Of a DNA stretch of 64,000 nt, positions 301 to 39,790 are shown in pieces (the first letter of the stretch is position 1; the number at the start of each line of letters is the position of its first letter). Source of the stretch: Candidatus Babeliales bacterium (GTDB taxonomy: Bacteria; Babelota; Babeliae; Babelales; JACPOV01); the NCBI GenBank assembly GCA_050250855.1, contig JBFWNW010000002.1, positions 197,925-261,924 on the forward strand. Reading direction: 5' to 3'. The notes below the pieces were generated by a model. The model worked only from the letters and a program-made list of their open reading frames with translations, searched no databases and was not told the DNA's origin. The position numbers and the translations under genes were made by a program.

Positions 301-353
301 ATTCTTGCGTAGGTAATTACTCATACAGTATCTTTTATAAAAAAGGGGATACT

Positions 354-2081
354 ATGAAAAAATTATTATTTTTTCTATTTTTATTTCTATCTATTCAAGC
401 GCCTTTGCAGAGCTCTGAAAAAAAAGAACCATGCAAGCAAGACCCTTATAATTTTAATACATTTTACCTTAAAATTTTTTTAGATACGAAACAGGCCCAT
501 CCTCAAGAAAATTCTGAATATATAAAAAAAGAAGTTTTAGACTGTTTTTATAATCTTTTGGGAGATCAATTAGCTCTTTTATCCGCGGTTAATCTTTATA
601 AGTCTTATTATGAAGCTCTGCTTAAAGCGAAGGAGGATTATAAGCAAAGTTTGGAGGCAGTTGGTGTTAAACCTACTACCCACGGTCTTTATGAAATGAA
701 ATTTTCTCCTTCCTTTGAAGAGCTAAGCTTTATAATGACTAACAGATTATTATTTAAAACACAGATACTCTCTACCAGAGAAAAAATACATATACAAGCC
801 TTGGCTATAGAAAAAGGAAAAGATCCTGTACTCAAGCCTTTGATTACTATTTTAATGAAGAAAAGTGAGTATGATGAAAAGCATAATGATATTCTGGCAT
901 TAGTAGCAACAATTTTAAAAAATGCCGAAAAAATAGAAAATCCTCGCTGCTGGACTTTTATAGAAAAATATACGGGACAAAATCCCTTTAACTATGCAAA
1001 TTCCATACTAGAGATATACAAAGAATGGATTGCTTCATATGCAAAAGATGCTTTATCTAAAAAAGAGTTTGGTGATATAAGCCCTGAGTTATTAAAAACA
1101 TATCTTCAAGCATCATCTATGCACTTGGTTAACATAGAAATTTCTTTTAAGTTTAACGTTCTTATCAATGAAGATTTTTCTAAAGCAGATTATGCTTTTC
1201 TAGAAGATTTTATGTCTGTAATACAAGAATATCAAAAAGATGAAAAAAACATTGCTTGTTTTTCAGACTATCTTAAGAATTTTTTGATAAACAAAGGCTA
1301 TATAAAAAAAGAAGAAGGATGGTCTTTACCATCGCTAAAAGACTCACAAGAAATATTTTTAAAGCAACAGGAATTAAAAAAAGAAGTTGTTATAAAACAG
1401 CTAGAGGAGCATGAAAAGGAAAAAAGATTAGAGCAAAAAGAACAAGAAAAAAAAGGGAAAAAGAAGCAGTCGGCAGTAACTGCAGCACCAGCATTTCTCG
1501 ATGCTTCATGGATTAATAAAAATTATAAAGTTTCAGATAAAAGCATCGTTAGATCAATAAAGGGAGATCAGGTTATTATCGATGACCAAAAAAATAATAT
1601 GCTTATTACGTTGATAATCCCCGATAAAGAGATTTTACGTCCAACAACTATTCCTGCCATAAAATTTGATGAACGAGTAGAGCGCTGGTTTAAAAATCCT
1701 GAAAAAACGTTACATGAAATAGGTTCACTAACACCAGACGAAGAATTAGGAAAGCTGCAGGCTGAAAAGCTTCATCAAAAAAAGCTTGAAATAAAGCGGC
1801 ATAATTTTGCACAGATGGTGGATCCATTTATTATGCTCTTTGGTGCCGATAGTATTCATATTGATAAAAAACAAAATAAAATTCCTAATAAAACGTTGGT
1901 AGGGCAGTTGGAAGATAAAAATACGCATGAAAAATTTGTTGGTGTTTTTGGCTATGCACAAAACCCTAAAACAGGCACCTGGTACCATAGATTTTTTAGC
2001 ACCAAAAAACCACAAGAAATTGCGCAAACCTATTTTAAAGGTGCTACGTTTGATCTAGAGTACCCTCCTCTTGGAGAGTGA
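354..2081 (+). CDS. Secreted hypothetical protein, twin paralogue A (575 aa)
   Basis: Signal peptide MKKLLFFLFLFLSIQAPLQS, purine-rich RBS (AAAAGGGGATACT) before the ATG, K/E-rich linker. The C-terminal ~195 aa are nearly identical to the next gene. Confidence 0.85.
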   Translation: MKKLLFFLFLFLSIQAPLQSSEKKEPCKQDPYNFNTFYLKIFLDTKQAHPQENSEYIKKEVLDCFYNLLGDQLALLSAVNLYKSYYEALLKAKEDYKQSLEAVGVKPTTHGLYEMKFSPSFEELSFIMTNRLLFKTQILSTREKIHIQALAIEKGKDPVLKPLITILMKKSEYDEKHNDILALVATILKNAEKIENPRCWTFIEKYTGQNPFNYANSILEIYKEWIASYAKDALSKKEFGDISPELLKTYLQASSMHLVNIEISFKFNVLINEDFSKADYAFLEDFMSVIQEYQKDEKNIACFSDYLKNFLINKGYIKKEEGWSLPSLKDSQEIFLKQQELKKEVVIKQLEEHEKEKRLEQKEQEKKGKKKQSAVTAAPAFLDASWINKNYKVSDKSIVRSIKGDQVIIDDQKNNMLITLIIPDKEILRPTTIPAIKFDERVERWFKNPEKTLHEIGSLTPDEELGKLQAEKLHQKKLEIKRHNFAQMVDPFIMLFGADSIHIDKKQNKIPNKTLVGQLEDKNTHEKFVGVFGYAQNPKTGTWYHRFFSTKKPQEIAQTYFKGATFDLEYPPLGE

Positions 2082-2095
2082 TGCAGCGTAATTGC
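1490..2095. repeat. Near-identical ~600 bp block, copy 1 (3' part of twin gene A plus ~14 nt past the stop)
   Basis: Aligns without indels to 3285-3890 at a constant offset of 1795 nt. I count roughly a dozen mismatches by eye across 1531-2081. Confidence 0.9.
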
Positions 2096-2148
2096 TTTGG
2101 TATTTAAATCAATATTTTAATATAAAAAAGAGTAAAAAAGAGGATACT

Positions 2149-3876
2149 ATGAAAAAATTATTATTCTTTCTATTTTTATTTCTATCTCAAGCGCCTTTGC
2201 GGAGCTCAGAAAAAAAAGAATCATGCAGCCAAGATTCTTATAATTTTAATAAATTTTATCTAGATATTTTTATGAAAGCAAAAGAGAATTTCCCTCAACA
2301 AAAACCTGAAAACGTTTTATTTTCTTTTGTTGAGCTTTTGGCAGATCAACTTTATCTTTTATCTGCTTTTGATTATTATACAGATTGGCATTCTAAGATG
2401 GCCGTCGCTCATCTTGATTATTTGTATAGTTTGGGCCTCGTGGGAGCTGTAGTAGTCGATGATTATTATTTTTTTGACAAAGCAGTAGTAACTTCTCTTG
2501 AAGAATTAAATTTTATTTTGCATAACAAGTCATTATTTCTAAAAAATAATTTTACTGAAAATGATAAAGCGGAGATTATTGCTTTAGATATAAATGAAAA
2601 AAATAAATCCCTCAGGCCTTGGATTAATATTCTTCTCAAAAAAAATGAATACCAGGAGCAGTATACGAGAGTTATAGCTACTATTTCACTTATTTTAATA
2701 AGGCTCATGGAGGTTGAGAGGAACCCTTATTGGGCATTTATACGTGATGAAACACAAAGCAGTCCCTTTATTTTTTTAAAGCAGATGCTACATACTTTGA
2801 AACAATGGGCTACTGCATATGCTGAGTTTATAGTGGATACTTCTGAAAAAGAACCTGAGAGGTTTACTAAAGAAGAGATTGAAAGAGGACGTATTTGCAA
2901 AGAAGTTTCTTCCGGAATATTGCAACCGGCTCAGCAAGCTTTAATGGTTGAAATGATGTCTAGAAACAAATTTACAGAATCTGAGATTCCTTATTTTAAT
3001 GAATTTTCTTCCATAGTTAATAAATATAAAATGCGTGAAAGTTGTGTTACTAATTTTGCAGAATCTCTTAGTAAGACATTGTTTAGTAAGAAGCTTGTAA
3101 AAAAAGGATTTTTTTTAAAAAATTTTGAACAAACAAAACAAGAATTGCTAAAGAATCTTATAGCAACAAAAGAAGAGCTTGAAAGGCGAGAAGTAGTATC
3201 TGAAAAAAAGGTCTTGCAAGCGCAAAAAAAACAAGAAAAACAAGAGAAAAAGAAGAAGTCAAAAGGCAAGCAGCCAATAGTACCAGCAGCCCTCGATGTT
3301 GCATGGATTAATAAGAGCTATAACGTTTCAGATAAAAGCATCGTTAGCTCAATAAAGGATGATCAGGTTATTATCGATGACCAAAAAAATAATATGCTTA
3401 TTACGTTGATAATCCCCGATAAAGAGATTTTACGTCCAACAACTATTCCTGCCATAAAATTTGATGAACGAGTAGAGCGTTGGTTTAAAAATCCTGAAAA
3501 AACGTTACATGAAATAGGTTCACTAACACCAGACGAAGAATTAGGAAAGCTGCAGGCTGAAAAGCTTCATCAAAAAAAGCTTGAAATAAAGCGGCATAAT
3601 TTTGCACAGATGGTGGATCCGTTTATTATGCTCTTTGGTGCCGATAGTATTCATATTGATAAGAAACAAAATAAAATTCCTAATAAAACGTTGGTAGGGC
3701 AGTTGGAAGATAAAAATACGCATGAAAAGCTTATTGGTGTTTTTGGCTATGCACAAAACCCTAAAACAGGCACTTGGTACCATAGATTTTTTAGTACCAA
3801 AAAACCACAAGAAATTGCGCAAACCTATTTTAAAGGTGCTACGTTTGATCTAGAGTATCCTCCTCTTGGAGAGTGA
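2149..3876 (+). CDS. Secreted hypothetical protein, twin paralogue B (575 aa)
   Basis: Start moved from the track's TTG (2092) to the ATG at 2149, which reproduces the same RBS and MKKLLFFLFLFLS signal peptide as gene A. The N-terminal ~380 aa are homologous to A but strongly diverged; the C-terminal ~195 aa are nearly identical. Confidence 0.85.
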   Translation: MKKLLFFLFLFLSQAPLRSSEKKESCSQDSYNFNKFYLDIFMKAKENFPQQKPENVLFSFVELLADQLYLLSAFDYYTDWHSKMAVAHLDYLYSLGLVGAVVVDDYYFFDKAVVTSLEELNFILHNKSLFLKNNFTENDKAEIIALDINEKNKSLRPWINILLKKNEYQEQYTRVIATISLILIRLMEVERNPYWAFIRDETQSSPFIFLKQMLHTLKQWATAYAEFIVDTSEKEPERFTKEEIERGRICKEVSSGILQPAQQALMVEMMSRNKFTESEIPYFNEFSSIVNKYKMRESCVTNFAESLSKTLFSKKLVKKGFFLKNFEQTKQELLKNLIATKEELERREVVSEKKVLQAQKKQEKQEKKKKSKGKQPIVPAALDVAWINKSYNVSDKSIVSSIKDDQVIIDDQKNNMLITLIIPDKEILRPTTIPAIKFDERVERWFKNPEKTLHEIGSLTPDEELGKLQAEKLHQKKLEIKRHNFAQMVDPFIMLFGADSIHIDKKQNKIPNKTLVGQLEDKNTHEKLIGVFGYAQNPKTGTWYHRFFSTKKPQEIAQTYFKGATFDLEYPPLGE

Positions 3877-3890
3877 TGCGGCGCAATTGT
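3285..3890. repeat. Near-identical ~600 bp block, copy 2
   Basis: See 1490-2095. Similarity continues a few nt beyond the stop (TGATGCGGCGCAATTG vs TGATGCAGCGTAATTG). Confidence 0.9.
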
Positions 3891-4264
3891 TCAGGGCATG
3901 TTAGGCGTATAAGAATATCAGCGGCATAGCGGGCAACTGCTATTTTGCAAAGTGCAACTGCAATGGTATAAAAACAACCTGAATAAGCAGATGTAGTTTG
4001 CCACCATGCATATGGCTTTTGCCATAGATAAGGAGCTTCAATCGAACGCAGCTGCTCTTGTAATACTGTATAGCTTATAATTACGGTGTAGCCGCAATAA
4101 AGCATGGCAGCTTTATGCAGCGTATGTGCCATAAAACAAAGAGGCAATAAGGAATGCCATGGTTTTTCTTGGTGGTATGCAATATAATCTTTTTGAAAAT
4201 ATTCTGATTGTATATTTGAATGTATTGTAAATAAAAGTATTATATATAAAGAGATTTTGTACAT
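3839..4264 (-). CDS. Hypothetical small exported/membrane protein
   Basis: Start taken at the internal Met (MYKISLYIILLFTIHSNIQS, signal-like). Trp/Tyr-rich with no recognisable domain. The 3' end overlaps twin gene B by 38 nt, and the start is only ~19 nt from the divergent gene at 4284, so the call is uncertain. Confidence 0.35.
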   Translation of the reverse strand: MYKISLYIILLFTIHSNIQSEYFQKDYIAYHQEKPWHSLLPLCFMAHTLHKAAMLYCGYTVIISYTVLQEQLRSIEAPYLWQKPYAWWQTTSAYSGCFYTIAVALCKIAVARYAADILIRLTCPEQLRRITLQEEDTLDQT

Positions 4265-4283: not shown

Positions 4284-5456
4284 ATGAAAAAAAATATATT
4301 CATAGTTTTTATACTAACTCATTTTTTACAAGGTATGGAGAGATTATTTATTCCGTACCTGGCAAATCTTGCACAATCTGCGCAACAAAGGCCGGAAAAC
4401 GATCTTTTAAAGCAGTCATTTAATAACCTTATGTGTGACCATCATGAAACTATAGCACAGGAATTTAAGCTTACTTCTGTGTTTCAAGCAGCATATAGTG
4501 GCAATACAAAAGAAGTTAAAGAATGGATTTCTTTAATACCGGTATTAGAAAATGCTAAAAATGATCTTGGCAAAACAGCGTATGATATTATTAACCAAAA
4601 AAAACAGCAAGTACAGGATTGGAAAAAACATGCAAATTTTGCAAAGCAAAAAAAAAGAACATCGATTTTTCAAGCAGCACAAAATGGCTCATTGCCAGAA
4701 GTGCAACAATGGGTAAAAGAACATTCTGCTTTAATATGGGCACGAGACGCAGAGGGTAAAACCGTGCTTGATAGAGCATGTTTTTCTCAGCAGCCAGCTT
4801 CAATGTATGTTTTTAATAGCGGTAGCCATGCAAAGCTTATAGAATTTATACAAGAAGAACGTATAAAAAATTACCAATTAGATCCCTCAGTAGATGTTAT
4901 TGCCAATCATGAACGCATAGCGGAAGAAATTGCGTGTCCATCTCTTTTTCAAGCAGTTACTTATGGGCAGCTCTCTTTATTAAAAGCGTGGATAGAAAGG
5001 CATCCATCGTTAGTTTGGTCAAAAAGTATCTATGGCAATGAAACGGCACTTGATAGAGCGTGTTATATCCAGCAATATGGATATTACTCTCCTATCAATG
5101 AAGATATTGTTACACTTTTACAAGAAAAACGTATAGAAAACTATAATTCTAAAAAAAACATAGATCCTATTGCTCAGCATGAAGAAATTGCTCGTGTTAT
5201 TTCATGTCCATCTTTATTTCAAGCGGTATGGGATGGTAATTTGCCATTAGTTAAAGCATGGATAAAAAAGCATCCACAATTACGCTATGCTACTTGTAAA
5301 TCTAAAGATACGGCATTGACTATAGCTTTTTGTTTAGATGAAAATGCAAAGATGGAAAAAAAAGACGAAGATAAATGGGCTCCTATTCTTAACTATTTGA
5401 ACCAAGAGAAAAATGAGTTCCTAAAACAGGATGAGAAATCTTCCTTGATCGAGTAA
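4284..5456 (+). CDS. Exported protein with four dispersed ankyrin-like modules
   Basis: Start at the ATG giving MKKNIFIVFILTHFLQG. Four copies of a module of the form S[IL]FQA..G....[VL][KQ].W[IV]..HP.L.....G.TALDRAC, separated by conserved linkers (QEERIKNY / QEKRIENY ... IA.HE.IA). Confidence 0.75.
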   Translation: MKKNIFIVFILTHFLQGMERLFIPYLANLAQSAQQRPENDLLKQSFNNLMCDHHETIAQEFKLTSVFQAAYSGNTKEVKEWISLIPVLENAKNDLGKTAYDIINQKKQQVQDWKKHANFAKQKKRTSIFQAAQNGSLPEVQQWVKEHSALIWARDAEGKTVLDRACFSQQPASMYVFNSGSHAKLIEFIQEERIKNYQLDPSVDVIANHERIAEEIACPSLFQAVTYGQLSLLKAWIERHPSLVWSKSIYGNETALDRACYIQQYGYYSPINEDIVTLLQEKRIENYNSKKNIDPIAQHEEIARVISCPSLFQAVWDGNLPLVKAWIKKHPQLRYATCKSKDTALTIAFCLDENAKMEKKDEDKWAPILNYLNQEKNEFLKQDEKSSLIE

Positions 5457-6219: not shown

Positions 6220-6307
6220 TAAAAAAAACTATTTTTAGATTAATGATATTTTTTTATTAAGTTTAATGGAATAGTTGGTTAAGTAAAATAAATATTTTTT
6301 ATAGTAT

Positions 6308-6756
6308 TATTTTGTTTATTATATTTTTAACAATTCATTATCTCACAGTCCCTCTCCGGGACGGGACCAGCCCCTTTTGCTTGTACAAAAGGGCTGGACA
6401 AAAATACACCAACATGCTGTTGGATTGCACTCTCGCTCAGACATCAACCACTCACTCTTCGGGTTTTCAACCCTCGATTTCAGGTCGATGATTCGCTACC
6501 GGCGTGAATGTATAAAAAATAGTTTAATGCACCGGTACGCTCATCTGTTTGAGAGCTTCTCAGTTTTCTTGCCCGGCGTAGCTTGATGCGAAGCCTGGGT
6601 AAAAAACTGGAAGCCGAGTTATGACCCTTCGATACAATTTCGATTTCATCGAAATCACTCAGGATGAGCGAAAGCCCTTGCGTGCCCGTCTGGGTGTTAA
6701 GGGTATTGGGCACGCAATACCTTTGTGCCCTGCACCCGGCATGAGGGTGCCATAAG
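6308..6756. repeat. Mosaic GC-rich intergenic element (M-type), copy 1
   Basis: Shares an AT-rich lead-in and module A (CTCACAGTCCCTCTCCGGGACGGGACCAGCCCCTTTT) with 21165-21241. Its right end (GTGTTAAGGGTATTGGGCACGCAATACC...GGCATGAGGGTGCCATAAG) is the reverse complement of 29990-30060. Contains the hairpin CCAGCCCCTTTTG-N-CAAAAGGGCTGG. Confidence 0.9.
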
Positions 6757-7240: not shown

Positions 7241-7266
7241 ATTAAACGAGTTTAAAAGAATTTTTA

Positions 7267-7352
7267 GTTCGCACCCTTCGACAAGCTCAGGGCGAACGAA
7301 GATAAAAGTTTTGATATAACCGTTCGTGCTGAGCTTGTCGAAGCATACGAAC
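7267..7352. repeat. Palindromic GC-rich intergenic element (P-type)
   Basis: Left arm GTTCGCACCCTTCGACAAGCTCAGGGCGAACG (7267-7298). The right arm (7321-7352) reverse-complements to GTTCGTATGCTTCGACAAGCTCAGCACGAACG. The arm recurs at five other loci. Confidence 0.9.
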
Positions 7353-7372
7353 AGGTATATTACCTTATAAAT

Positions 7373-10731: not shown

Positions 10732-10807
10732 GTTCGTACCCTTCGACAAGCTCAGGGCGACTGAATAATCGGTCATACTGAGCGAGGGTTAACCCGAGTC
10801 GAAGTAT
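10732..10807. repeat. P-type element (variant)
   Basis: Starts GTTCGTACCCTTCGACAAGCTCAGGGCGA. Its right half (GGTCATACTGAGCGAGGGTTAACCCGAGTCGAAGTAT) is the reverse complement of 31556-31592. Confidence 0.85.
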
Positions 10808-10905
10808 AAAATAATAAAATTTAAGATAAGTCGCTAAAATTAAGTATAGCCGCTTACACTCTTTTTTCAAAGTGCAAGCGGCTATTTCAAGGGGCTATCG
10901 TTATA

Positions 10906-21098: not shown

Positions 21099-21164
21099 GT
21101 ATATATTGATTTATTTTTAGATATATTTTTGAGTTTCACGGTTTTTATGCGGGCCATTTTTTTT

Positions 21165-21690
21165 GTTAATTTTGTTTATTATATTTTTTTAAGTATTTAA
21201 TTATCTCATGGCCCTTACCCAGGGCGGGGCCAGCCCCTTTTGCTTGTACAAAAGGGCTGGACAAAAATACACCAACATGCTGTTGGATCCGCTTGCTCGC
21301 TCAGACATCAACCACTCATCCTTCGGCTTCAGGTCGATGATTCGCTACCGGAGTGAATGTATAAAAAATAGTTTAATGCACCTTGACCCTTCGATACAAT
21401 TTCGATTTCATCGAAATCACTCCCTTCGACAAGCTCAGGACAGGCAGGGTGAGCGCACAGAACTATACTTAGTATCAAAAATAAGAAATTTACATAAATG
21501 AATTCATTATAACGCGCTCATCTTGAGTGTTTTTCCGTTAGGAAAAATGTATCAGCCTGCCCGGCGAAGCTTTTTAGTCCGAAGAAGTTTTTAACGAAGG
21601 CGGATTATGCGAAGCCTGGGAAAGATAAAGCGCTTGAAAAGAGGCTGGTCCCGTCCCGGAGAGGGACTGGTAAGATATACAAAAAACAAA
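21165..21690. repeat. Composite mosaic element (M-type) bounded by inverted A modules
   Basis: Left A module at 21205-21241. The right A module (21637-21676) reverse-complements to ATCTTACCAGTCCCTCTCCGGGACGGGACCAGCCTCTTTT. Internal modules are shared with 6308-6756, 24974-25055 and 30339-30423, and there is a P-type arm fragment at 21421-21444. Confidence 0.9.
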
Positions 21691-23808: not shown

Positions 23809-24972
23809 ATGATCGATTTTGTTGAAGAAAAAAAAGAGTTCAGCGCAGGAGTTTCTATTAAAGTTTTAGGAATTGGCGGTGCTGGCGGTAATACCGTAAA
23901 CAGTATGATTGATGCTGGTTTTGAAGGTATTGATTTTATTGTAGCAAATACTGATGCACAAGCATTACACTTATCAAAGGCACGCAATAAAATTCAGCTT
24001 GGCGTAAAATCAACCAAAGGCCTGGGTACTGGTGCAAATCCAGAACTGGGAAAACGAGCTGCAGAAGAAGATCTTGAAAAAGTAATGGAAGCTTTAGAAG
24101 ATGCAGATATTGTATTTTTGACTGGCGGCATGGGCGGCGGCACAGGATCTGGCGCATTGCCCGTTGTAGCGCATGCACTTAAAGAAAAAGGTATTTTATC
24201 AATTGCTGTTGTTACCAAGCCGTTTGTTTTTGAAGGAAAACGCCGTGCGCAAGTAGCAGAGAATTCTTTAGAACTTCTGAAAAAAGAAATTGATACGTTA
24301 ATTATTATGCCGAATCAAAAACTACTTGATGTTGTTGATAAACATGTTTCTATGATTGATGCTTTTGCCATGATTAATGAAGTTTTAAATAGATCCGTTA
24401 AAGGTATTGCTGATATTATTGCAAAAACAGGGCATATGAATGTTGATTTTGCAGACGTTCGCACTATCATGAAAGATATGGGACTTGCTGTTATGGGAAC
24501 GGGCAGAGCAAGCGGCGAAGACCGTGCAGAACTTGCTGCAATGGAAGCAATCGAATCGCCATTGCTTGAGAATATGAGCATTGCTGGAGCGCGTGGCGTA
24601 TTGCTTAATATTACGGGCGGCAAAAACTTAGGGCTCCATGAAATCAGACAAGCGGCGAATATTATTTATGAACAAGCTGATGAAAACGCCAATATTATTC
24701 TAGGTTCTGTTATTGATGATTCGTTAACTGATGAAGTAATTGTTACCGTTATTGCAACGGGCTTTGAATCAAAAAATGCTCAAGAATGCAAAAAACAAGA
24801 AGAGCCAATGCCGGTTAAAGCTACTATTAAAGATGGTTCAATGCAGTATGAAAAAGTAATGCCAGACTATAAAAAAGAAGAAGCAAAGAAATATGAATTG
24901 AGCTCTGTTGATGATCTTGATATTCCAACATTTATGCGTAAAAAAGAAGGCACAACAGGAAGAATTGACTAG
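23809..24972 (+). CDS. ftsZ: Cell division protein FtsZ
   Basis: GIGGAGGNTVN, GGMGGGTGSGALPVVA, C-terminal DDLDIPTFMRKK. Confidence 0.95.
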   Translation: MIDFVEEKKEFSAGVSIKVLGIGGAGGNTVNSMIDAGFEGIDFIVANTDAQALHLSKARNKIQLGVKSTKGLGTGANPELGKRAAEEDLEKVMEALEDADIVFLTGGMGGGTGSGALPVVAHALKEKGILSIAVVTKPFVFEGKRRAQVAENSLELLKKEIDTLIIMPNQKLLDVVDKHVSMIDAFAMINEVLNRSVKGIADIIAKTGHMNVDFADVRTIMKDMGLAVMGTGRASGEDRAELAAMEAIESPLLENMSIAGARGVLLNITGGKNLGLHEIRQAANIIYEQADENANIILGSVIDDSLTDEVIVTVIATGFESKNAQECKKQEEPMPVKATIKDGSMQYEKVMPDYKKEEAKKYELSSVDDLDIPTFMRKKEGTTGRID

Positions 24973-25120
24973 AGCTTTATCCTTCCCAGGCTTCGCATAA
25001 TCCGCCTTCGTTAAAACTTCTTCGGACTAAAGAGCTTCGCCGGGCAAGCTGATACAATTTTCTACGCAAATCACTCAGGATGAGCGTATATTTTTATGCG
25101 CTCATCTTGTCTGTTTTTTT
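24973..25120. repeat. Mosaic element (M-type), short copy
   Basis: 24974-25055 is the reverse complement of module H at 21549-21633 and 30339-30423. It ends in the AGGATGAGCG...CGCTCATCTT hairpin. Confidence 0.9.
25077..25120 (+). terminator. Candidate terminator formed by the repeat's terminal hairpin
   Basis: AGGATGAGCG (25077-25086) pairs with CGCTCATCTT (25099-25108), a 10 bp stem with one G-T pair, followed 5 nt later by T7. It lies downstream of ftsZ. Confidence 0.5.
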
Positions 25121-29989: not shown

Positions 29990-30500
29990 CTTACGGCGCC
30001 TTCATGCCAGGCGCAGGGCATAAGGGTATTGCGTGCCCAATACCCTTAACACAAGGGCACATAAGAGAAGATCTCTTATGTATCTCTCTGCACTCATAAC
30101 TCGGCTTCCAGATTTTTTCCAAAAATCTGAGAAGCTCTCAAACCTATGAGCTTTCAAGGTGCATAAAATTAAATTGACTCTTCGATACAATTTACTACGT
30201 AAATCTTTCAGAGTGAAAGCGGAATAAAGATAGAAATTATATTTATGCGCTCATCTTGCCTGTCCTGCCGTGCCCGACGTAGCTTTTATGCGAAGTCTGG
30301 GAGTTTATCGAAGGGAGTGTTTTTCCGCTAGGAAAAATGTATCAGCCTGCCCGGCGAAGCTCTTTAGTCCGAAGAAGTTTTAACGAAGGCGGATTATGCG
30401 AAAGCCTGGGAAAGATAAAGCGCCTGAAAAGGGGCTGGCTCTGTTCCGAATAGGGCCATGAGTAATTTTAAATACAAAGTAATATTTTAAAACTTCAATT
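29990..30500. repeat. Mosaic element (M-type), inverted relative to 6308-6756
   Basis: 29990-30060 is the reverse complement of the right end of 6308-6756. 30430-30465 is an inverted A module (revcomp CTCATGGCCCTATTCGGAACAGAGCCAGCCCCTTTT). Module H lies at 30339-30423. The AT-rich lead-in abuts the galE stop. Confidence 0.9.
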
Positions 30501-31515: not shown

Positions 31516-31684
31516 AGAGCTTATCGCAAAATTAAAAAACTTTTGCAGTTTTATACTTCGACTCGGGTAAAAACCCTCGCTCAGTATGACCGGGTTCTCT
31601 GTCTCCCTGCCTGTCCTGAGTATTCGCGAAGGGAGCGAGCAGAGTGAGTCGAAGGGTAAATTTATGATTTTTGCGATAAGCTCT
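31516..31684. repeat. P-type element nested between a perfect 16 bp inverted repeat
   Basis: AGAGCTTATCGCAAAA (31516-31531) and TTTTGCGATAAGCTCT (31669-31684) flank the GC-rich core at 31555-31657 (ACTTCGACTCGGG...GAGTCGAAGGG). Confidence 0.85.
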
Positions 31685-35669: not shown

Positions 35670-36938
35670 CTATTGATTTAAAAGAGATTTATACATATTT
35701 TTTCTTGCTATTTTTTCAGTAAGGTGCTTATGCCACTCTGGGTCATTCTCTTCTTGTAGTTTCATTTTTTCTTCCCAAGTAAGAGCAGCTTGTACCTTCA
35801 TATCTTGAGTATTTGTATAGCCAGCCAAAGCTTTTTTGGTTTCTTCCAGCGTAACAAGAGAAGAAGGAGTGGTAGTTTTATTTTCTTCTTTTTCTTTATT
35901 CATAAGATATGCATATGCAGAAGGTTCTTCATGCTCTACTTGTTTTTCAACCTGTTGAGTAGAAACATAAATTCCTTTTTCTTCTTGCATTACTGGCTTT
36001 TTCCACCATTGGTAAGTCTTATAAAGACCATAACCAATAAGAGGTGTAGCAACAGCAGCTGCCACTGCATAAGGATGGCATGAAACAAAATTCAATGCAG
36101 GAGTAGAAAGCTTAGTTGCTAATGCTGAAGCATTATTCCATGAAGCATTCTGCCACAGGTATGTTAACCCTGTTTTAGCGCTTGCTAGATTTTGTTTTAA
36201 GTTAATGCAACGAGCTAAAGAGTCTGGATTGTGTCTGCTAGCCCAAGTAAGTAATGATCCATAAGCCAAAGCAGTTGTTGTTACAACAGTATTTTCATTT
36301 TTACAAAAAGTAAGAATGCCATCTTTAACGCTGATTATGCCGTTTTTAACAACATCAGCAGCTTTTTTGATGTGGCCATTATTGTATACACAATATTCTA
36401 CAACGCCCGCTGCAACAGCTACTGCTACAACGCCTGTCAAATAAGGGTGTTCTTGAATAGCTTCTAAAGAAAGCTTAACAATTTCATAACCCTTGTTTTT
36501 GAAGTTTGAAGTTATAGTATTAACTTGTTGGTTTGATGTAGATTGCTCAGTTGTAGTTTCAACAACATGTCCCAACTGATGTTCAGTTGAACCTGCGATG
36601 AATTCTGGCTCTATAGCTTGTGTAGTTGCTTCAGGTTTAACTTCACCAAAAGAAAACCAGTTAGATAGTTTTTTAGGCAAAGAAACTGAAGCTTGAGCTG
36701 TTTTTGCAGGTACCGCAGTATAACTCCAATTAGATTTTTTTGGAGTTTCAGCTGGTATAACAAATTTTGTACCAAAGTGTTTCTCTTGGTCCATTTTGTA
36801 CTGCTCAGCGGCCTGTGCCTTTAGATTTTCTAAATACTGAGAGAAAGTTCCTACCGGTGCATAATTAGGTTTTGCGCAGATAGGGCCCATTGCTAACGCA
36901 GCAACGGCTATAAGTGAAAAATAACGAATAGTATTCAT
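35670..36938 (-). CDS. Membrane protein, MNTIRYF family member 1
   Basis: Signal peptide MNTIRYFSLIAVAALAMG (first ~75 nt identical to 36977..37378). Hydrophobic segments HPYLTGVVAVAVAAGVV and HPYAVAAAVATPLIGYGLYKTYQWWKK. Confidence 0.75.
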   Translation of the reverse strand: MNTIRYFSLIAVAALAMGPICAKPNYAPVGTFSQYLENLKAQAAEQYKMDQEKHFGTKFVIPAETPKKSNWSYTAVPAKTAQASVSLPKKLSNWFSFGEVKPEATTQAIEPEFIAGSTEHQLGHVVETTTEQSTSNQQVNTITSNFKNKGYEIVKLSLEAIQEHPYLTGVVAVAVAAGVVEYCVYNNGHIKKAADVVKNGIISVKDGILTFCKNENTVVTTTALAYGSLLTWASRHNPDSLARCINLKQNLASAKTGLTYLWQNASWNNASALATKLSTPALNFVSCHPYAVAAAVATPLIGYGLYKTYQWWKKPVMQEEKGIYVSTQQVEKQVEHEEPSAYAYLMNKEKEENKTTTPSSLVTLEETKKALAGYTNTQDMKVQAALTWEEKMKLQEENDPEWHKHLTEKIARKNMYKSLLNQ

Positions 36939-36976: not shown

Positions 36977-37378
36977 TTATTTTCCGTTTTTACAATATTG
37001 GTAAACTTTATAAAGACCATAAAAAATAACAGGAGTAGCAATTGCAGCTGCTGTTATGTAAGGATTATTCTTTATAAATTCTGGTGTCCAGCTAGAAGCA
37101 GTAGAATATACCGTTTCTTTACTCGGCAAAATACTGTTAAAGTAGTTATATCCCGGCACCATTTTTAAATAGTTCAGCTGTTTTTCAGTTGAATCTATAG
37201 CCAATTGTGATTGTGCAGTTGATTCAGGTTGAATTTGACTGAGTGGTTTTATTCGTATATTAAAACGACTTCCATCATCATTAATAAATGTAGGATATCT
37301 GGGCTCAGGAACAGCAAAAGATTGGCCCATTGCTAACGCAGCAACGGCTATAAGTGAAAAATAACGAATAGTATTCAT
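36977..37378 (-). CDS. Membrane protein, MNTIRYF family member 2
   Basis: Same signal peptide and GGAGG RBS. C-terminal anchor NPYITAAAIATPVIFYGLYKVYQYCK. Confidence 0.75.
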   Translation of the reverse strand: MNTIRYFSLIAVAALAMGQSFAVPEPRYPTFINDDGSRFNIRIKPLSQIQPESTAQSQLAIDSTEKQLNYLKMVPGYNYFNSILPSKETVYSTASSWTPEFIKNNPYITAAAIATPVIFYGLYKVYQYCKNGK

Positions 37379-38242: not shown

Positions 38243-38896
38243 TTAATGGAGGAATAGTGCAAGTGGCTTAGCCAAAAATGACTGTAGCACGTAAAAAAGG
38301 GGGATTAGGGCTATAATTGAATCAAAACGATCTAGAAGGCCGCCATGGCCAGGTAGAAGGGTGCCCGCATCTTTGCGCTGAGCACAGCGTTTGAGCCACG
38401 ATTCAAAGAGGTCGCCTCCTGTGGCCACGAGCGCAATCAGGATGCTCAGAGCAGCAAAATAAGCATTTGATAGAGCCCAAGGCTTGAATGCAAGAAGTAC
38501 TATAAAAACAGCTATAAGCCCCCCTAAAAACCCTTCCCAGGTTTTTTTAGGGCTTAAAGAAGGAGCAAGAAGGTGCTTACCTATTAAATTTCCAACCAGG
38601 TAGGCAGCAGTATCATGGCAAAAAGCTATAACAAAAAGAAGCTGTACCAGCTTGATATTTTGGTAGGCCATATAAGCAAGGAGCGCAAAGGGGACGCCAA
38701 GGTAGCAGGTTGCAAGAATAAGGTAATTTTGTGCTGAACGTGAAAGCTGCGGCAATTCTGTGCAAAGGATAAGAAAAAGAATCGTAGCCAAAAGAGTATA
38801 AAAAATCCAAAAAGGAAGAAAAAAGAGTGATGCCAAAATGATGAAAGAAAAGAGAAGGCCTGTAATGCTCCGTGTTAAAAATTCTTGAAAGTTCAT
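38243..38896 (-). CDS. cdsA: Phosphatidate cytidylyltransferase
   Basis: SWLKRCAQRKDAGTLLPGHGGLLDRFDS signature; polytopic. Confidence 0.85.
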   Translation of the reverse strand: MNFQEFLTRSITGLLFSFIILASLFFLPFWIFYTLLATILFLILCTELPQLSRSAQNYLILATCYLGVPFALLAYMAYQNIKLVQLLFVIAFCHDTAAYLVGNLIGKHLLAPSLSPKKTWEGFLGGLIAVFIVLLAFKPWALSNAYFAALSILIALVATGGDLFESWLKRCAQRKDAGTLLPGHGGLLDRFDSIIALIPLFYVLQSFLAKPLALFLH

Positions 38897-38936
38897 AAGT
38901 TAACTTTTTTGTATTTCTATAAATTTTTAGTTATTC

Positions 38937-39038
38937 CGTTCGCCCTGACCCCTCGTCAGCTTTGCAGCCGCTCGGGACTAAAGGCAATTCGAGGGGAGCA
39001 TGCCCTGAGCTTGTCGAATGGGTCGAAGGGTGCGAACG
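38937..39038. repeat. P-type palindromic element flanking the 3' side of the GIY-YIG gene
   Basis: CGTTCGCCCTGACCCCTCG...CGAGGGG...CCCTGAGCTTGTCGAATGGGTCGAAGGGTGCGAACG, with terminal and internal inverted symmetry. Confidence 0.9.
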
Positions 39039-39049
39039 ATTTATAATAT

Positions 39050-39325
39050 TTATTTGTTGCTTAACTCTATTATTTTAGTCCAATTGCCATTAATTAAAGC
39101 GTTTTTCTTTTCTCGTGACCATTCTTTAATTTTTTGTTCAGCAATTAGTGCATCAACTCTTTCCTCAAATTTTTCTAAAAATACTAATTCTATAGGGAGG
39201 CGAGTTGATGTATAGCTTGCATATTTTTTATCATTATGTTCAGCTAATCTCTTTTCAATATTATCTGTATGCCCAGTATAATATGAGTTGTCTGAACATT
39301 TTAGTATATAAACATAAAAATTCAT
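39050..39325 (-). CDS. Small stand-alone GIY-YIG nuclease family protein
   Basis: MNFYVYILKCSDNSYYTGHTDNIEKRLAEHN matches the GIY-YIG/URI signature; 91 aa. Confidence 0.85.
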   Translation of the reverse strand: MNFYVYILKCSDNSYYTGHTDNIEKRLAEHNDKKYASYTSTRLPIELVFLEKFEERVDALIAEQKIKEWSREKKNALINGNWTKIIELSNK

Positions 39326-39330
39326 TATGA

Positions 39331-39425
39331 GTTCGTATCCTTCGACAAGCTCAGGACGAATGGAGTGAAGTGCTGAGCGAAGCGTTTACTACTGAGTATT
39401 AATCGAAGTATCAGGATGAACGGAG
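39331..39425. repeat. P-type palindromic element flanking the 5' side of the GIY-YIG gene
   Basis: GTTCGTATCCTTCGACAAGCTCAGGACGAA...CTGAGTATTAATCGAAGTATCAGGATGAACGG. Translating through it gives the PFVLSLSKD peptide seen in track ORF 39325..39519. Confidence 0.9.
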
Positions 39426-39430
39426 AATAA

Positions 39431-39790
39431 TTAACCATACCTCTCCTGCTTAGTGAATGCATTAGGAATATACTGTAATGAATTTTCATTAACTGCTCCC
39501 TGAATGAGCGCAACATCAAAACGGAAGACTTTATTGGTAAGCTGCTTTGAGGCTATATAATGCTGTGCTGCTTTAATTATTTTTTTTTGTTTTCCATAAG
39601 TAATAACTTCAGAAAGATTATACTGATGTGTTGTGCGGGTTTTGACTTCTACAAAGATGACAAGATCTTCTTTCTTTGCAATAATATCAACTTCACCATA
39701 GAATTTTTTATAGTTGCGTTCAAGAATGGTAAAGCCTTGTTTTTGTATAAACTGAGCAACCAGACTTTCTCCCTGTGTTCCTAAGTTCAT
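39431..39790 (-). CDS. yraN: YraN (UPF0102) family endonuclease-like protein
   Basis: GEVDIIAKKEDLVIFVEVKTR core typical of UPF0102; 119 aa. Confidence 0.8.
   Translation of the reverse strand: MNLGTQGESLVAQFIQKQGFTILERNYKKFYGEVDIIAKKEDLVIFVEVKTRTTHQYNLSEVITYGKQKKIIKAAQHYIASKQLTNKVFRFDVALIQGAVNENSLQYIPNAFTKQERYG

Follow-up and report, generated by a model that had tools for sequence, protein, structure and literature searches.

The window analysed here is a 64-kb, AT-rich stretch of a metagenome-assembled Candidatus Babeliales (Dependentiae) genome. Between the host genes yraN and cdsA it carries a cassette in which a very small gene for a GIY-YIG nuclease stands between inverted copies of a GC-rich hairpin, and further copies of this hairpin, with no such gene beside them, are scattered over the window. 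Hairpin units were located with a covariance model, R1, for which 140 units taken from 135 sources were aligned. The locus is composed as follows.

38897..39430, minus strand: whole inserted cassette of 534 bp (doublet, GIY-YIG gene, doublet and 40 nt of AT-rich leader before cdsA)
39050..39325, minus strand: single-domain GIY-YIG nuclease gene (Ssn-like / UPF0213-like), 91 aa; Pfam PF01541, E 9e-19, residues 3-74
39326..39366, minus strand: gene-proximal upstream unit; R1 40.8 bits, E 4e-10
39380..39422, plus strand: distal upstream unit, the degenerate and inverted second member of the doublet 39326-39425; R1 15.7 bits, E 0.025
38993..39033, plus strand: gene-proximal downstream unit, inverted relative to the upstream one; R1 24.2 bits, E 6e-5
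38937..38987, minus strand: distal downstream unit with the variant loop CCCGAG...CGAGGGG, completing the doublet 38937-39038; R1 18.8 bits, E 0.003
39431-39790, minus strand: yraN (UPF0102), host gene upstream of the insertion; Pfam PF02021, E 3e-25
38243-38896, minus strand: cdsA (phosphatidate cytidylyltransferase, CTP_transf_1), host gene downstream of the insertion; Pfam PF01148, E 6.5e-44

The initial annotation described two GC-rich palindromic elements of ~100 bp at 11 nt (element ending at 39038) and 5 nt (element starting at 39331) from the open reading frame (ORF), with inverted copies of one arm facing the gene. The distances are exact, and so are the inverted arms and their quoted sequences, including a 9-nt internal duplication. 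The elements themselves are present; each is an inverted doublet of ~41-nt units, and every arm forms a hairpin of its own. On the sense strand of the gene the unit 39326-39366 reads CCATTCGTCC-TGAGCTTGTCGAA-GGATACGAAC; it ends 6 nt before the ATG and directs its 5' tag away from the gene, a position and orientation that match most homologue loci, and together with its partner 39380-39422 it folds into a long hairpin. The downstream unit 38993-39033 holds the 9-nt internal duplication (GTCGAATGG/GTCGAAGGG) and matches the arm core at 39004-39020(-) with 1 mismatch. Another reading of 38937-39038, with one unit inserted in the loop of another, was dropped; the covariance model gives a doublet.

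It is confirmed that the cassette is an insertion between yraN and cdsA, as the initial annotation had suspected, since the yraN/cdsA junctions of three related genomes (L323, L324 and L326) are empty. All three keep the gene order TamB - x - GspE - BamD(YfiO) - YraN - CdsA, with yraN and cdsA overlapping by 14 nt in L323 and L324 and lying 11 nt apart in L326; in the window 534 bp separate the two genes, taken up by doublet, gene and doublet. A search of the relatives' junctions with R1 found no hairpin unit on which a target role might have fallen. The L323 genome does have a 69%-identical GIY-YIG gene (P0003) at a different locus, 205 kb off and beside a tRNA-synthetase gene, and long-loop variants of the unit lie on its flanks. 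The insertion is present in two independent Logan assemblies of the window organism, both of which terminate within the downstream unit 38993-39033, where a repeat would be expected to break an assembly. Another related Babeliales genome (L325) has a 617-nt gene-free gap between yraN and cdsA (3384-4000), with no GIY-YIG ORF and no R1 unit anywhere in the locus. Some GC-rich patches are seen in this gap, for example CGAGAGACGAGCGTAGCGAGC, and it may be what is left of a decayed insertion, or another insertion altogether, at this junction.

The layout of the cassette is repeated far outside this genome. An alignment of 40 homologues (A1), used as a query, retrieved 80 metagenome loci with 83 genes (45-64% identity, GC content 29-69%), around which the density of R1 units is 11.3 per kb within 50 nt of the gene, 4.8 per kb at 50-100 nt and 0.06-0.08 per kb beyond 500 nt, so that density beside the gene is ~150-fold the background. 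The expectation that other GIY-YIG copies are bracketed as well is borne out: a unit lies within 150 nt of 69 of the 83 genes, and 46 are flanked by units on both sides, in the canonical inverted orientation in 37 of these 46. The nearest upstream unit has the model orientation in 53/59 cases and the nearest downstream unit is inverted in 45/56, with a median gap between gene and unit of ~20 nt. The same arrangement was met in an Eremiobacterota genome with 71% GC (L092). Some genes even read through into the unit, as the C-terminal tails of their products are unit translations (e.g. LRQAQGER, PSTSSGRT). Our data show that the association of gene and hairpin holds across phyla in one fixed geometry, with the tag pointing outward on each side.

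REP (repetitive extragenic palindromic) sequences go with genes of RAYT (REP-associated tyrosine, Y1) transposases, which are themselves flanked by inverted REPs. A comparable tie between a small GIY-YIG nuclease and its repeat family, as proposed in the initial annotation, is supported by the homologue flanks and by the empty junction.

Hairpins beside the genes are not all alike. Four classes, A-D, group with protein subclades in a UPGMA tree, the variants being GTTCGAGC..GTCGAGAAC, CCCGAGC..CGAGGG and a long-loop form, TGAGTG-[small hairpin]-TGTATCGAAGG; this co-variation is the pattern that cognate, co-evolving nuclease/hairpin pairs would produce. Two contigs hold more than one copy of the module: in L202 two copies are 97.7% identical over 513 bp (1056-1325 and 3969-4238), and in L197 two copies are 87% identical over 431 bp. 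Each L202 copy has a 75-nt long-loop unit repeated directly on its flanks in place of a simple inverted pair, and the architecture of the ends therefore differs between lineages. We also noticed gene-less pairs of the form tag-hairpin, short spacer, hairpin-tag (L009, L030, L037, L061 and L100), which have the same phase as the gene module and occur alongside tag-to-tag doublets, the commoner form; they could have arisen from modules by deletion.

The unit of ~41 nt has the form 5'-CCGTTCGYCC, TGAGCTTGTCGAA, GGR...-3' with a 13-nt conserved core, and the 140-unit alignment gives the consensus nnnCCGnTCGnCCTGAGCTTGTCGAAGGG. Core positions G15-A16-G17 and C23-G24-A25 are invariant in this alignment, and the core could pair as C-G, C-G, T-A, tandem G.A/A.G and G-C around a CTTGT loop. 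Pair 11-29, which lies just outside the 17-mer used for searching, is formed in 134/140 units by five types (CG 66, UA 44, UG 14, GC 9, AU 1) and has a covariation of 0.323, versus 0.178 in column shuffles and 0.10-0.18 with the partner column slid. Conservation of the 5' flank is 0.3-1.2 bits per column, while the 3' flank past three pairs has at most 0.2 bits and is kept solely as complementarity. On the tag strand G.T exceeds A.C (157 versus 102), a modest bias among units that are not independent samples. From the conserved 5' flank, the unconserved 3' flank and this G.T excess it follows that the unit has an orientation, set by its 5' tag, and selection looks to have acted on the fold that one of its strands adopts when single.

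In Rfam the elements have no match at the gathering threshold (search of the whole window), and an E-value search of 38800-39500 returned sub-threshold noise only. A targeted literature search for the hairpin motif string, or for GIY-YIG linked with REP or RAYT, gave nothing relevant. Partial tandem duplications within the hairpin core were seen in L017 at 5141-5420 ((GACAAGCTCAGGAC)n), L040 at 5458, L053, L080 at 7458 and L113 at 5341, as well as at 39004-39030 of the window, where the duplication is the one given above; slippage at the core, or its repeated cleavage and repair, is suggested by them.

The arm recurs at four sites of the window away from the cassette, where the initial annotation had seen it too, and R1 now resolves these sites into units.

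7262-7302, minus strand, and 7317-7357, plus strand: solo doublet without gene (inverted repeat I13); R1 42.5 and 39.1 bits
10727..10767, minus strand: solo unit with an exact core match at 10740 and a degenerate partner to ~10807; R1 38 bits
21410..21450, minus strand: solo unit with divergent 5' tag and an exact core match at 21423; R1 33.6 bits
31546-31593, minus strand, and 31604-31645, plus strand: weak doublet of variant longer-loop units; R1 8.9 and 15.6 bits

With the cassette this makes ~10 units at 6 sites in 64 kb according to R1. The arm core CCTTCGACAAGCTCAGG alone has 6 matches in the window at up to 3 mismatches, versus 0.06 expected from shuffles (7275+, 7328-, 10740+, 21423+, 39004- and 39339+). 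In the doublet 7262-7357 the tags face each other over a 20-nt spacer and the hairpin has a minimum free energy of -50.6 kcal/mol; generally, window doublets have their two tags opposed across a short spacer, and gene-proximal units have tags directed away from the gene. The weak doublet 31546-31645 is connected to 10753-10822 by the inverted repeats I6 and I11. Further GC-rich repeat families (D5, D11-D13, D17, I1-I5) lie at 21500-21670, 24971-25062, 30233-30455, 6295-6533, 21158-21382 and 6346-6378. Several of them hold TGAGTG-[small hairpin]-TGTATC, the signature of long-loop units beside GIY-YIG genes in L131, L197 and L327, and these families may be decayed or variant members of the same superfamily.

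Outside the window the exact 17-mer was found in at least 120 species (scan with one genome per species) with GC content from 31 to 72%. Hosts listed include Bacteroidota, Chloroflexota, the candidate phyla radiation (CPR), Acidobacteriota, Cyanobacteria, Verrucomicrobiota, Planctomycetota, Actinomycetota and Alpha-, Beta- and Gammaproteobacteria. A random 17-mer would have an estimated ~69 chance matches in 596 Gb; the matches found have common sequence and pairing beyond the 17-mer itself. A GIY-YIG gene stands in 1 of the 120 listed stretches (L092), which are at most 8 kb long and so uninformative on co-occurrence; this ratio is what a REP/RAYT-like ratio predicts and is no co-occurrence test. 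It does mean that copies without a gene are far more numerous than genes. Class-A units adjoin tRNA genes in two genomes, one from the CPR and one from Vulcanimicrobiota (L018 at 415, L069 at 4485).

The catalytic residues of the 91-aa protein are intact (Y6, Y16, G18, R26, H30 and E63 are invariant in the alignment of 40 homologues), and its clade carries a C-terminal K-x-W-S-R-x-K-K...W motif in that alignment. Its best matches in the PDB are the UPF0213 proteins BH0048 (1ZG2, E 5e-15) and EF2693 (1YWL). It has no family or equivalog match in NCBIfam, and PADLOC gave marginal matches only, so that it is no catalogued defence protein. Proteins of unrelated phyla are 60-69% identical to it, whereas the neighbouring CdsA, even when compared within Babeliales, reaches only 55%; horizontal spread of the GIY-YIG gene is suggested by this. 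A scan of IMG/VR for the protein clade returned just 12 distant relatives with at most 48% identity, so phage carriage is unsupported as a route of this spread.

Two further repeats were noticed in the window. ORFs 35670-36938(-) and 36977-37378(-) have the same N-terminus MNTIRYFSLIAVAALAMG (63-nt repeat D14, 97%) and a related C-terminal stretch of 79 nt (D10), and look like recently duplicated or recombining secreted or membrane proteins. At 329-3578 there is a tandem duplication with a spacing of ~1795 nt (D1, 300 nt at 95%; also D6, D8 and D15) that takes in the start of a signal-peptide-like ORF (MKKLLFF...).

The arrangement has a precedent with biochemistry. SsnA of N. meningitidis, a protein of 94 aa with a single GIY-YIG domain (cd10448), binds the NTS hairpin solely as single-stranded DNA (ssDNA) and makes its cut upstream of the hairpin, on one strand; double-stranded DNA (dsDNA) and RNA are not acted on, and the protein has a modulating effect on transformation (Chenal et al. 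2025, Nat Commun, PMC11893778). SRM hairpins, which are NTS-like, stand beside Ssn homologues of many phyla, at least one in 71% and on both sides in 42%, and among genomes with over 200 SRMs 81% have a gene for an Ssn homologue (PMC11893778). Chenal et al. themselves likened NTS-ssnA-NTS to an insertion sequence (IS) and to REP/RAYT (PMC11893778). The principle of a nuclease with a dispersed hairpin was therefore already published in 2025, the window case is a rediscovery of it, and the REP/RAYT-like idea of the initial annotation is not new. A role of the nuclease in making or spreading the repeats would go beyond what is shown here or in PMC11893778.

NTS-flanked GIY-YIG genes were also recovered from IMG/VR (L257, L282, L295, L315, L280 and L204) and share the layout of the window cassette, with the tag outward; L257, L282 and L315 were used to compare the NTS-ssn-NTS layout directly. 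The Neisseria-type NTS motif CGTCATTCCCGCGNNNGCGGGAATC was seen in at least 120 viral stretches of this database (L203-L322), in part as arrays (13 copies in L212, for example), and six of the listed stretches hold the NTS-flanked gene.

We explain the cassette as an IS-like module of Ssn type, in which a tiny GIY-YIG gene stands between inverted copies of its cognate hairpin and gene-less hairpins, singly or in doublets, are scattered through the genome, and we put the probability of this at about 70%. By analogy with the SsnA proteins of Neisseria and Wolbachia (PMC11893778), the protein would bind the hairpin only where the strand with the tag has become single-stranded, as may happen during replication, transformation or cruciform extrusion, and would nick a few nucleotides 5' of the tag. 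At a doublet, where tags are opposed, both strands would be cut in the central spacer, and a doublet at each end, as in the window, could make either strand of the gene segment releasable. It might be speculated that such nicks start recombination or copy events that spread units and module. GIY-YIG enzymes hydrolyse DNA and have no known covalent intermediates or strand transfer, and re-joining would therefore be left to host functions. Alternatively or in addition, and equally speculatively, the nuclease may restrict hairpin-bearing ssDNA, whether incoming or exposed, an effect shown for Neisseria transformation.

It should be noted that several observations weigh against this explanation. 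The SRM search pattern of Chenal et al. (HGTCWYN(0-2)YYVSBRHN(0-5)WNVSBRGN(0-2)RNCYNB, PMC11893778) has 0 matches in the 64-kb window and in 0/85 gene flanks, although the NTS positive control was found. This pattern was derived from 29 genomes and serves as a search tool, and its miss therefore means a different hairpin class and not the absence of hairpins. Fourteen of the 83 homologues have no R1-detected unit, most of them showing variant long-loop hairpins by eye only. The G.T bias described above belongs here too, as does the low gene number: no second GIY-YIG gene or remnant was found in the 64-kb window, which leaves one gene for ~10 units. By sequence the protein is nearer to UPF0213 than to Ssn. 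In a phmmer all-against-all comparison it scores 60 bits with BH0048 and 51 bits with EF2693 versus 25-34 bits with Ssn types, and the clade profile gives 81 and 68 bits versus 45-56 bits. Its pairwise identity with the NTS-flanked GIY-YIG proteins is 30-31% (E 2e-12). Taking UPF0213 scores above Ssn types as a proxy, the assignment to cd10448, the Ssn clade, leans negative. E. coli YhbQ, annotated as a DNA-damage-response nuclease, is likewise 31% identical to the window protein and is not repeat-flanked. Given the low identity to Ssn types and the higher UPF0213 scores, transfer of the ssDNA-specific activity to the window clade would be an extrapolation.

The strongest of the other readings is a stronger form of this explanation rather than its opposite, namely that the GIY-YIG protein is a true transposase-equivalent which excises and re-inserts units and module via single-stranded intermediates. 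We consider it unlikely. The IS-like layout with inverted ends, the empty site together with a gene at different loci in related genomes, the near-identical module copies within one contig, the horizontal spread that the protein and CdsA identities suggest and the gene-less tag-hairpin/hairpin-tag pairs resembling deletion derivatives all speak for it. Against these stand the hydrolytic chemistry of the superfamily, for which strand transfer is not known, and the absence from the data of any readable target-site duplication or defined insertion target; the Ssn work, too, reports cleavage only (PMC11893778). If the nuclease does drive the spread of the hairpin, a GIY-YIG-based class of prokaryotic transposons would have to be added to those known.

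It is very unlikely that the hairpins act at the RNA level, as 5' untranslated region (UTR) and terminator structures for regulating or stabilising the GIY-YIG transcript, with their copying to other places a secondary event. Stabilisation of mRNA by REP-like elements is known (PMC3733652), and the upstream unit does lie in the expected 5' UTR, where it would fold in the sense transcript and where the G.T-richer strand is the sense strand. The downstream unit, however, is inverted, so that its tag strand is antisense to the gene, and no T-run follows this hairpin; solo copies occur in both orientations relative to neighbour genes, Rfam has no match, and SsnA does not bind RNA (PMC11893778).

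We give very little credence to a free-standing homing endonuclease that cuts dsDNA at the hairpin and has its gene copied in by repair, the arms being halves of a split target. GIY-YIG is a classical fold of homing endonucleases, the gene stands between inverted halves of a palindromic sequence, and relatives have empty sites, but 91 residues make a catalytic domain only, with no DNA-binding domain of the I-TevI type, and each flank is a complete unit or doublet and not a half-site. Moreover, the relatives' yraN/cdsA junction offers no unit as a potential target, units far outnumber genes (1/120 listed unit-bearing stretches held one), and the nearest characterised relatives do not cut dsDNA (PMC11893778). 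Known homing enzymes of this fold (I-TevI, Seg) were rejected as candidates on the single catalytic domain, the whole-unit flanks and a TIGR01453 score of 14.4 bits versus a cut-off of 56.

Chance juxtaposition of an ordinary housekeeping gene of YhbQ/UPF0213 type with two intergenic repeats has a negligible probability: ~6 repeat sites among ~60 intergenic gaps would give an estimated ~0.5 adjacent pairs in the window and the protein does score closest to UPF0213, but the ~150-fold enrichment of units beside homologues across phyla in fixed orientation, the co-variation of hairpin class with protein subclade, the joint insertion of gene and repeats, and E. coli yhbQ, a true UPF0213 gene that is wedged tightly between yhbP and yhbS and has no hairpins on its flanks, all speak against it.

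Returning to the Ssn-type module, we propose, tentatively and at well below even odds, that a second lineage of small GIY-YIG proteins, more UPF0213-like than Ssn-like, lives as a nuclease-plus-hairpin mobile module, and that its class-A hairpin, missed by the SRM pattern, is among the most widespread non-coding elements of bacteria. This hairpin is almost nucleotide-identical from Dependentiae to Chloroflexota, CPR, Bacteroidota and Proteobacteria, and because it escapes the SRM pattern, censuses based on that pattern undercount the phenomenon. An Ssn-like lifestyle in a clade ~30% identical to Ssn and closer to UPF0213 would make more small GIY-YIG proteins worth testing for hairpin-specific cleavage of ssDNA; if the proposal is true, the UPF0213/YhbQ/SLX1-like radiation, long uncharacterised, may descend from hairpin-specific ssDNA nucleases. 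The clean pair of insertion and empty site in an obligate-symbiont lineage and the co-variation of hairpin class with subclade are as co-evolving nuclease/target pairs predict, and such pairs are of practical interest as orthogonal sequence-specific ssDNA cutters.

Known systems resemble the module to different degrees. Integron attC sites were rejected: the unit ends are CCGTTCG / CGAACGG and not RYYYAAC/GTTRRRY, a single cassette stands in a housekeeping operon, and solo copies lie elsewhere. Among GIY-YIG proteins, the UPF0213/YhbQ/SLX1-like group is closest to the window protein by sequence and alike in size and catalytic residues; UPF0213 proteins, however, have a G-x-G-A-K-Y-T stretch in the BH0048/EF2693 alignments which is absent from the window clade. 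IS200/IS605 elements also have subterminal DNA hairpins that are read on one strand as ssDNA, and a very small encoded protein, but their end hairpins lie on the same strand and are used for HUH strand transfer, whereas the window hairpins lie on opposite strands and go with a hydrolase.

CGTC-tagged REPs, including the Rickettsia palindromic elements, are short tagged palindromes of many phyla that have been reported without a dedicated transposase (Di Nocera et al. 2013, PMC3733652). The NTS/SRM class carries their CGTC tag; the window units have CCGTTCG as tag and another loop core, and the main text of PMC3733652 contains none of the strings CGTTC, GTCGAA and TTCGAC. With REP/RAYT the module has in common one nuclease gene between inverted short hairpins, far more gene-less copies than genes, frequent inverted doublets and a single-stranded hairpin as the likely substrate. 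It differs in its enzyme, a GIY-YIG hydrolase and not an HUH/Y1 transposase (a search of the flanked gene gave no match to Y1_Tnp), in units that have no GTAG tag, and in a hairpin core almost unchanged across many phyla, while REP/RAYT pairs, according to 10.1101/2021.07.10.451892, are long-persisting and vertically inherited within single lineages.

Ssn differs from the window case in its hairpin, CGTCATTCCCGCG-MAV-GCGGGAATCYRG versus CCGTTCGYCC-TGAGCTTGTCGAA-GGR, and in a protein to which that of the window is only 30-31% identical while scoring nearer to UPF0213. Otherwise the two have much in common: both have a single-domain GIY-YIG protein of ~90-100 aa whose gene is flanked by inverted hairpins with the conserved 5' flank outward, both have cognate hairpins specific to protein lineages, the hairpin is dispersed in Ssn genomes and, at least over the 64-kb window, in the Babeliales genome as well, and both count symbionts and intracellular bacteria among their hosts.

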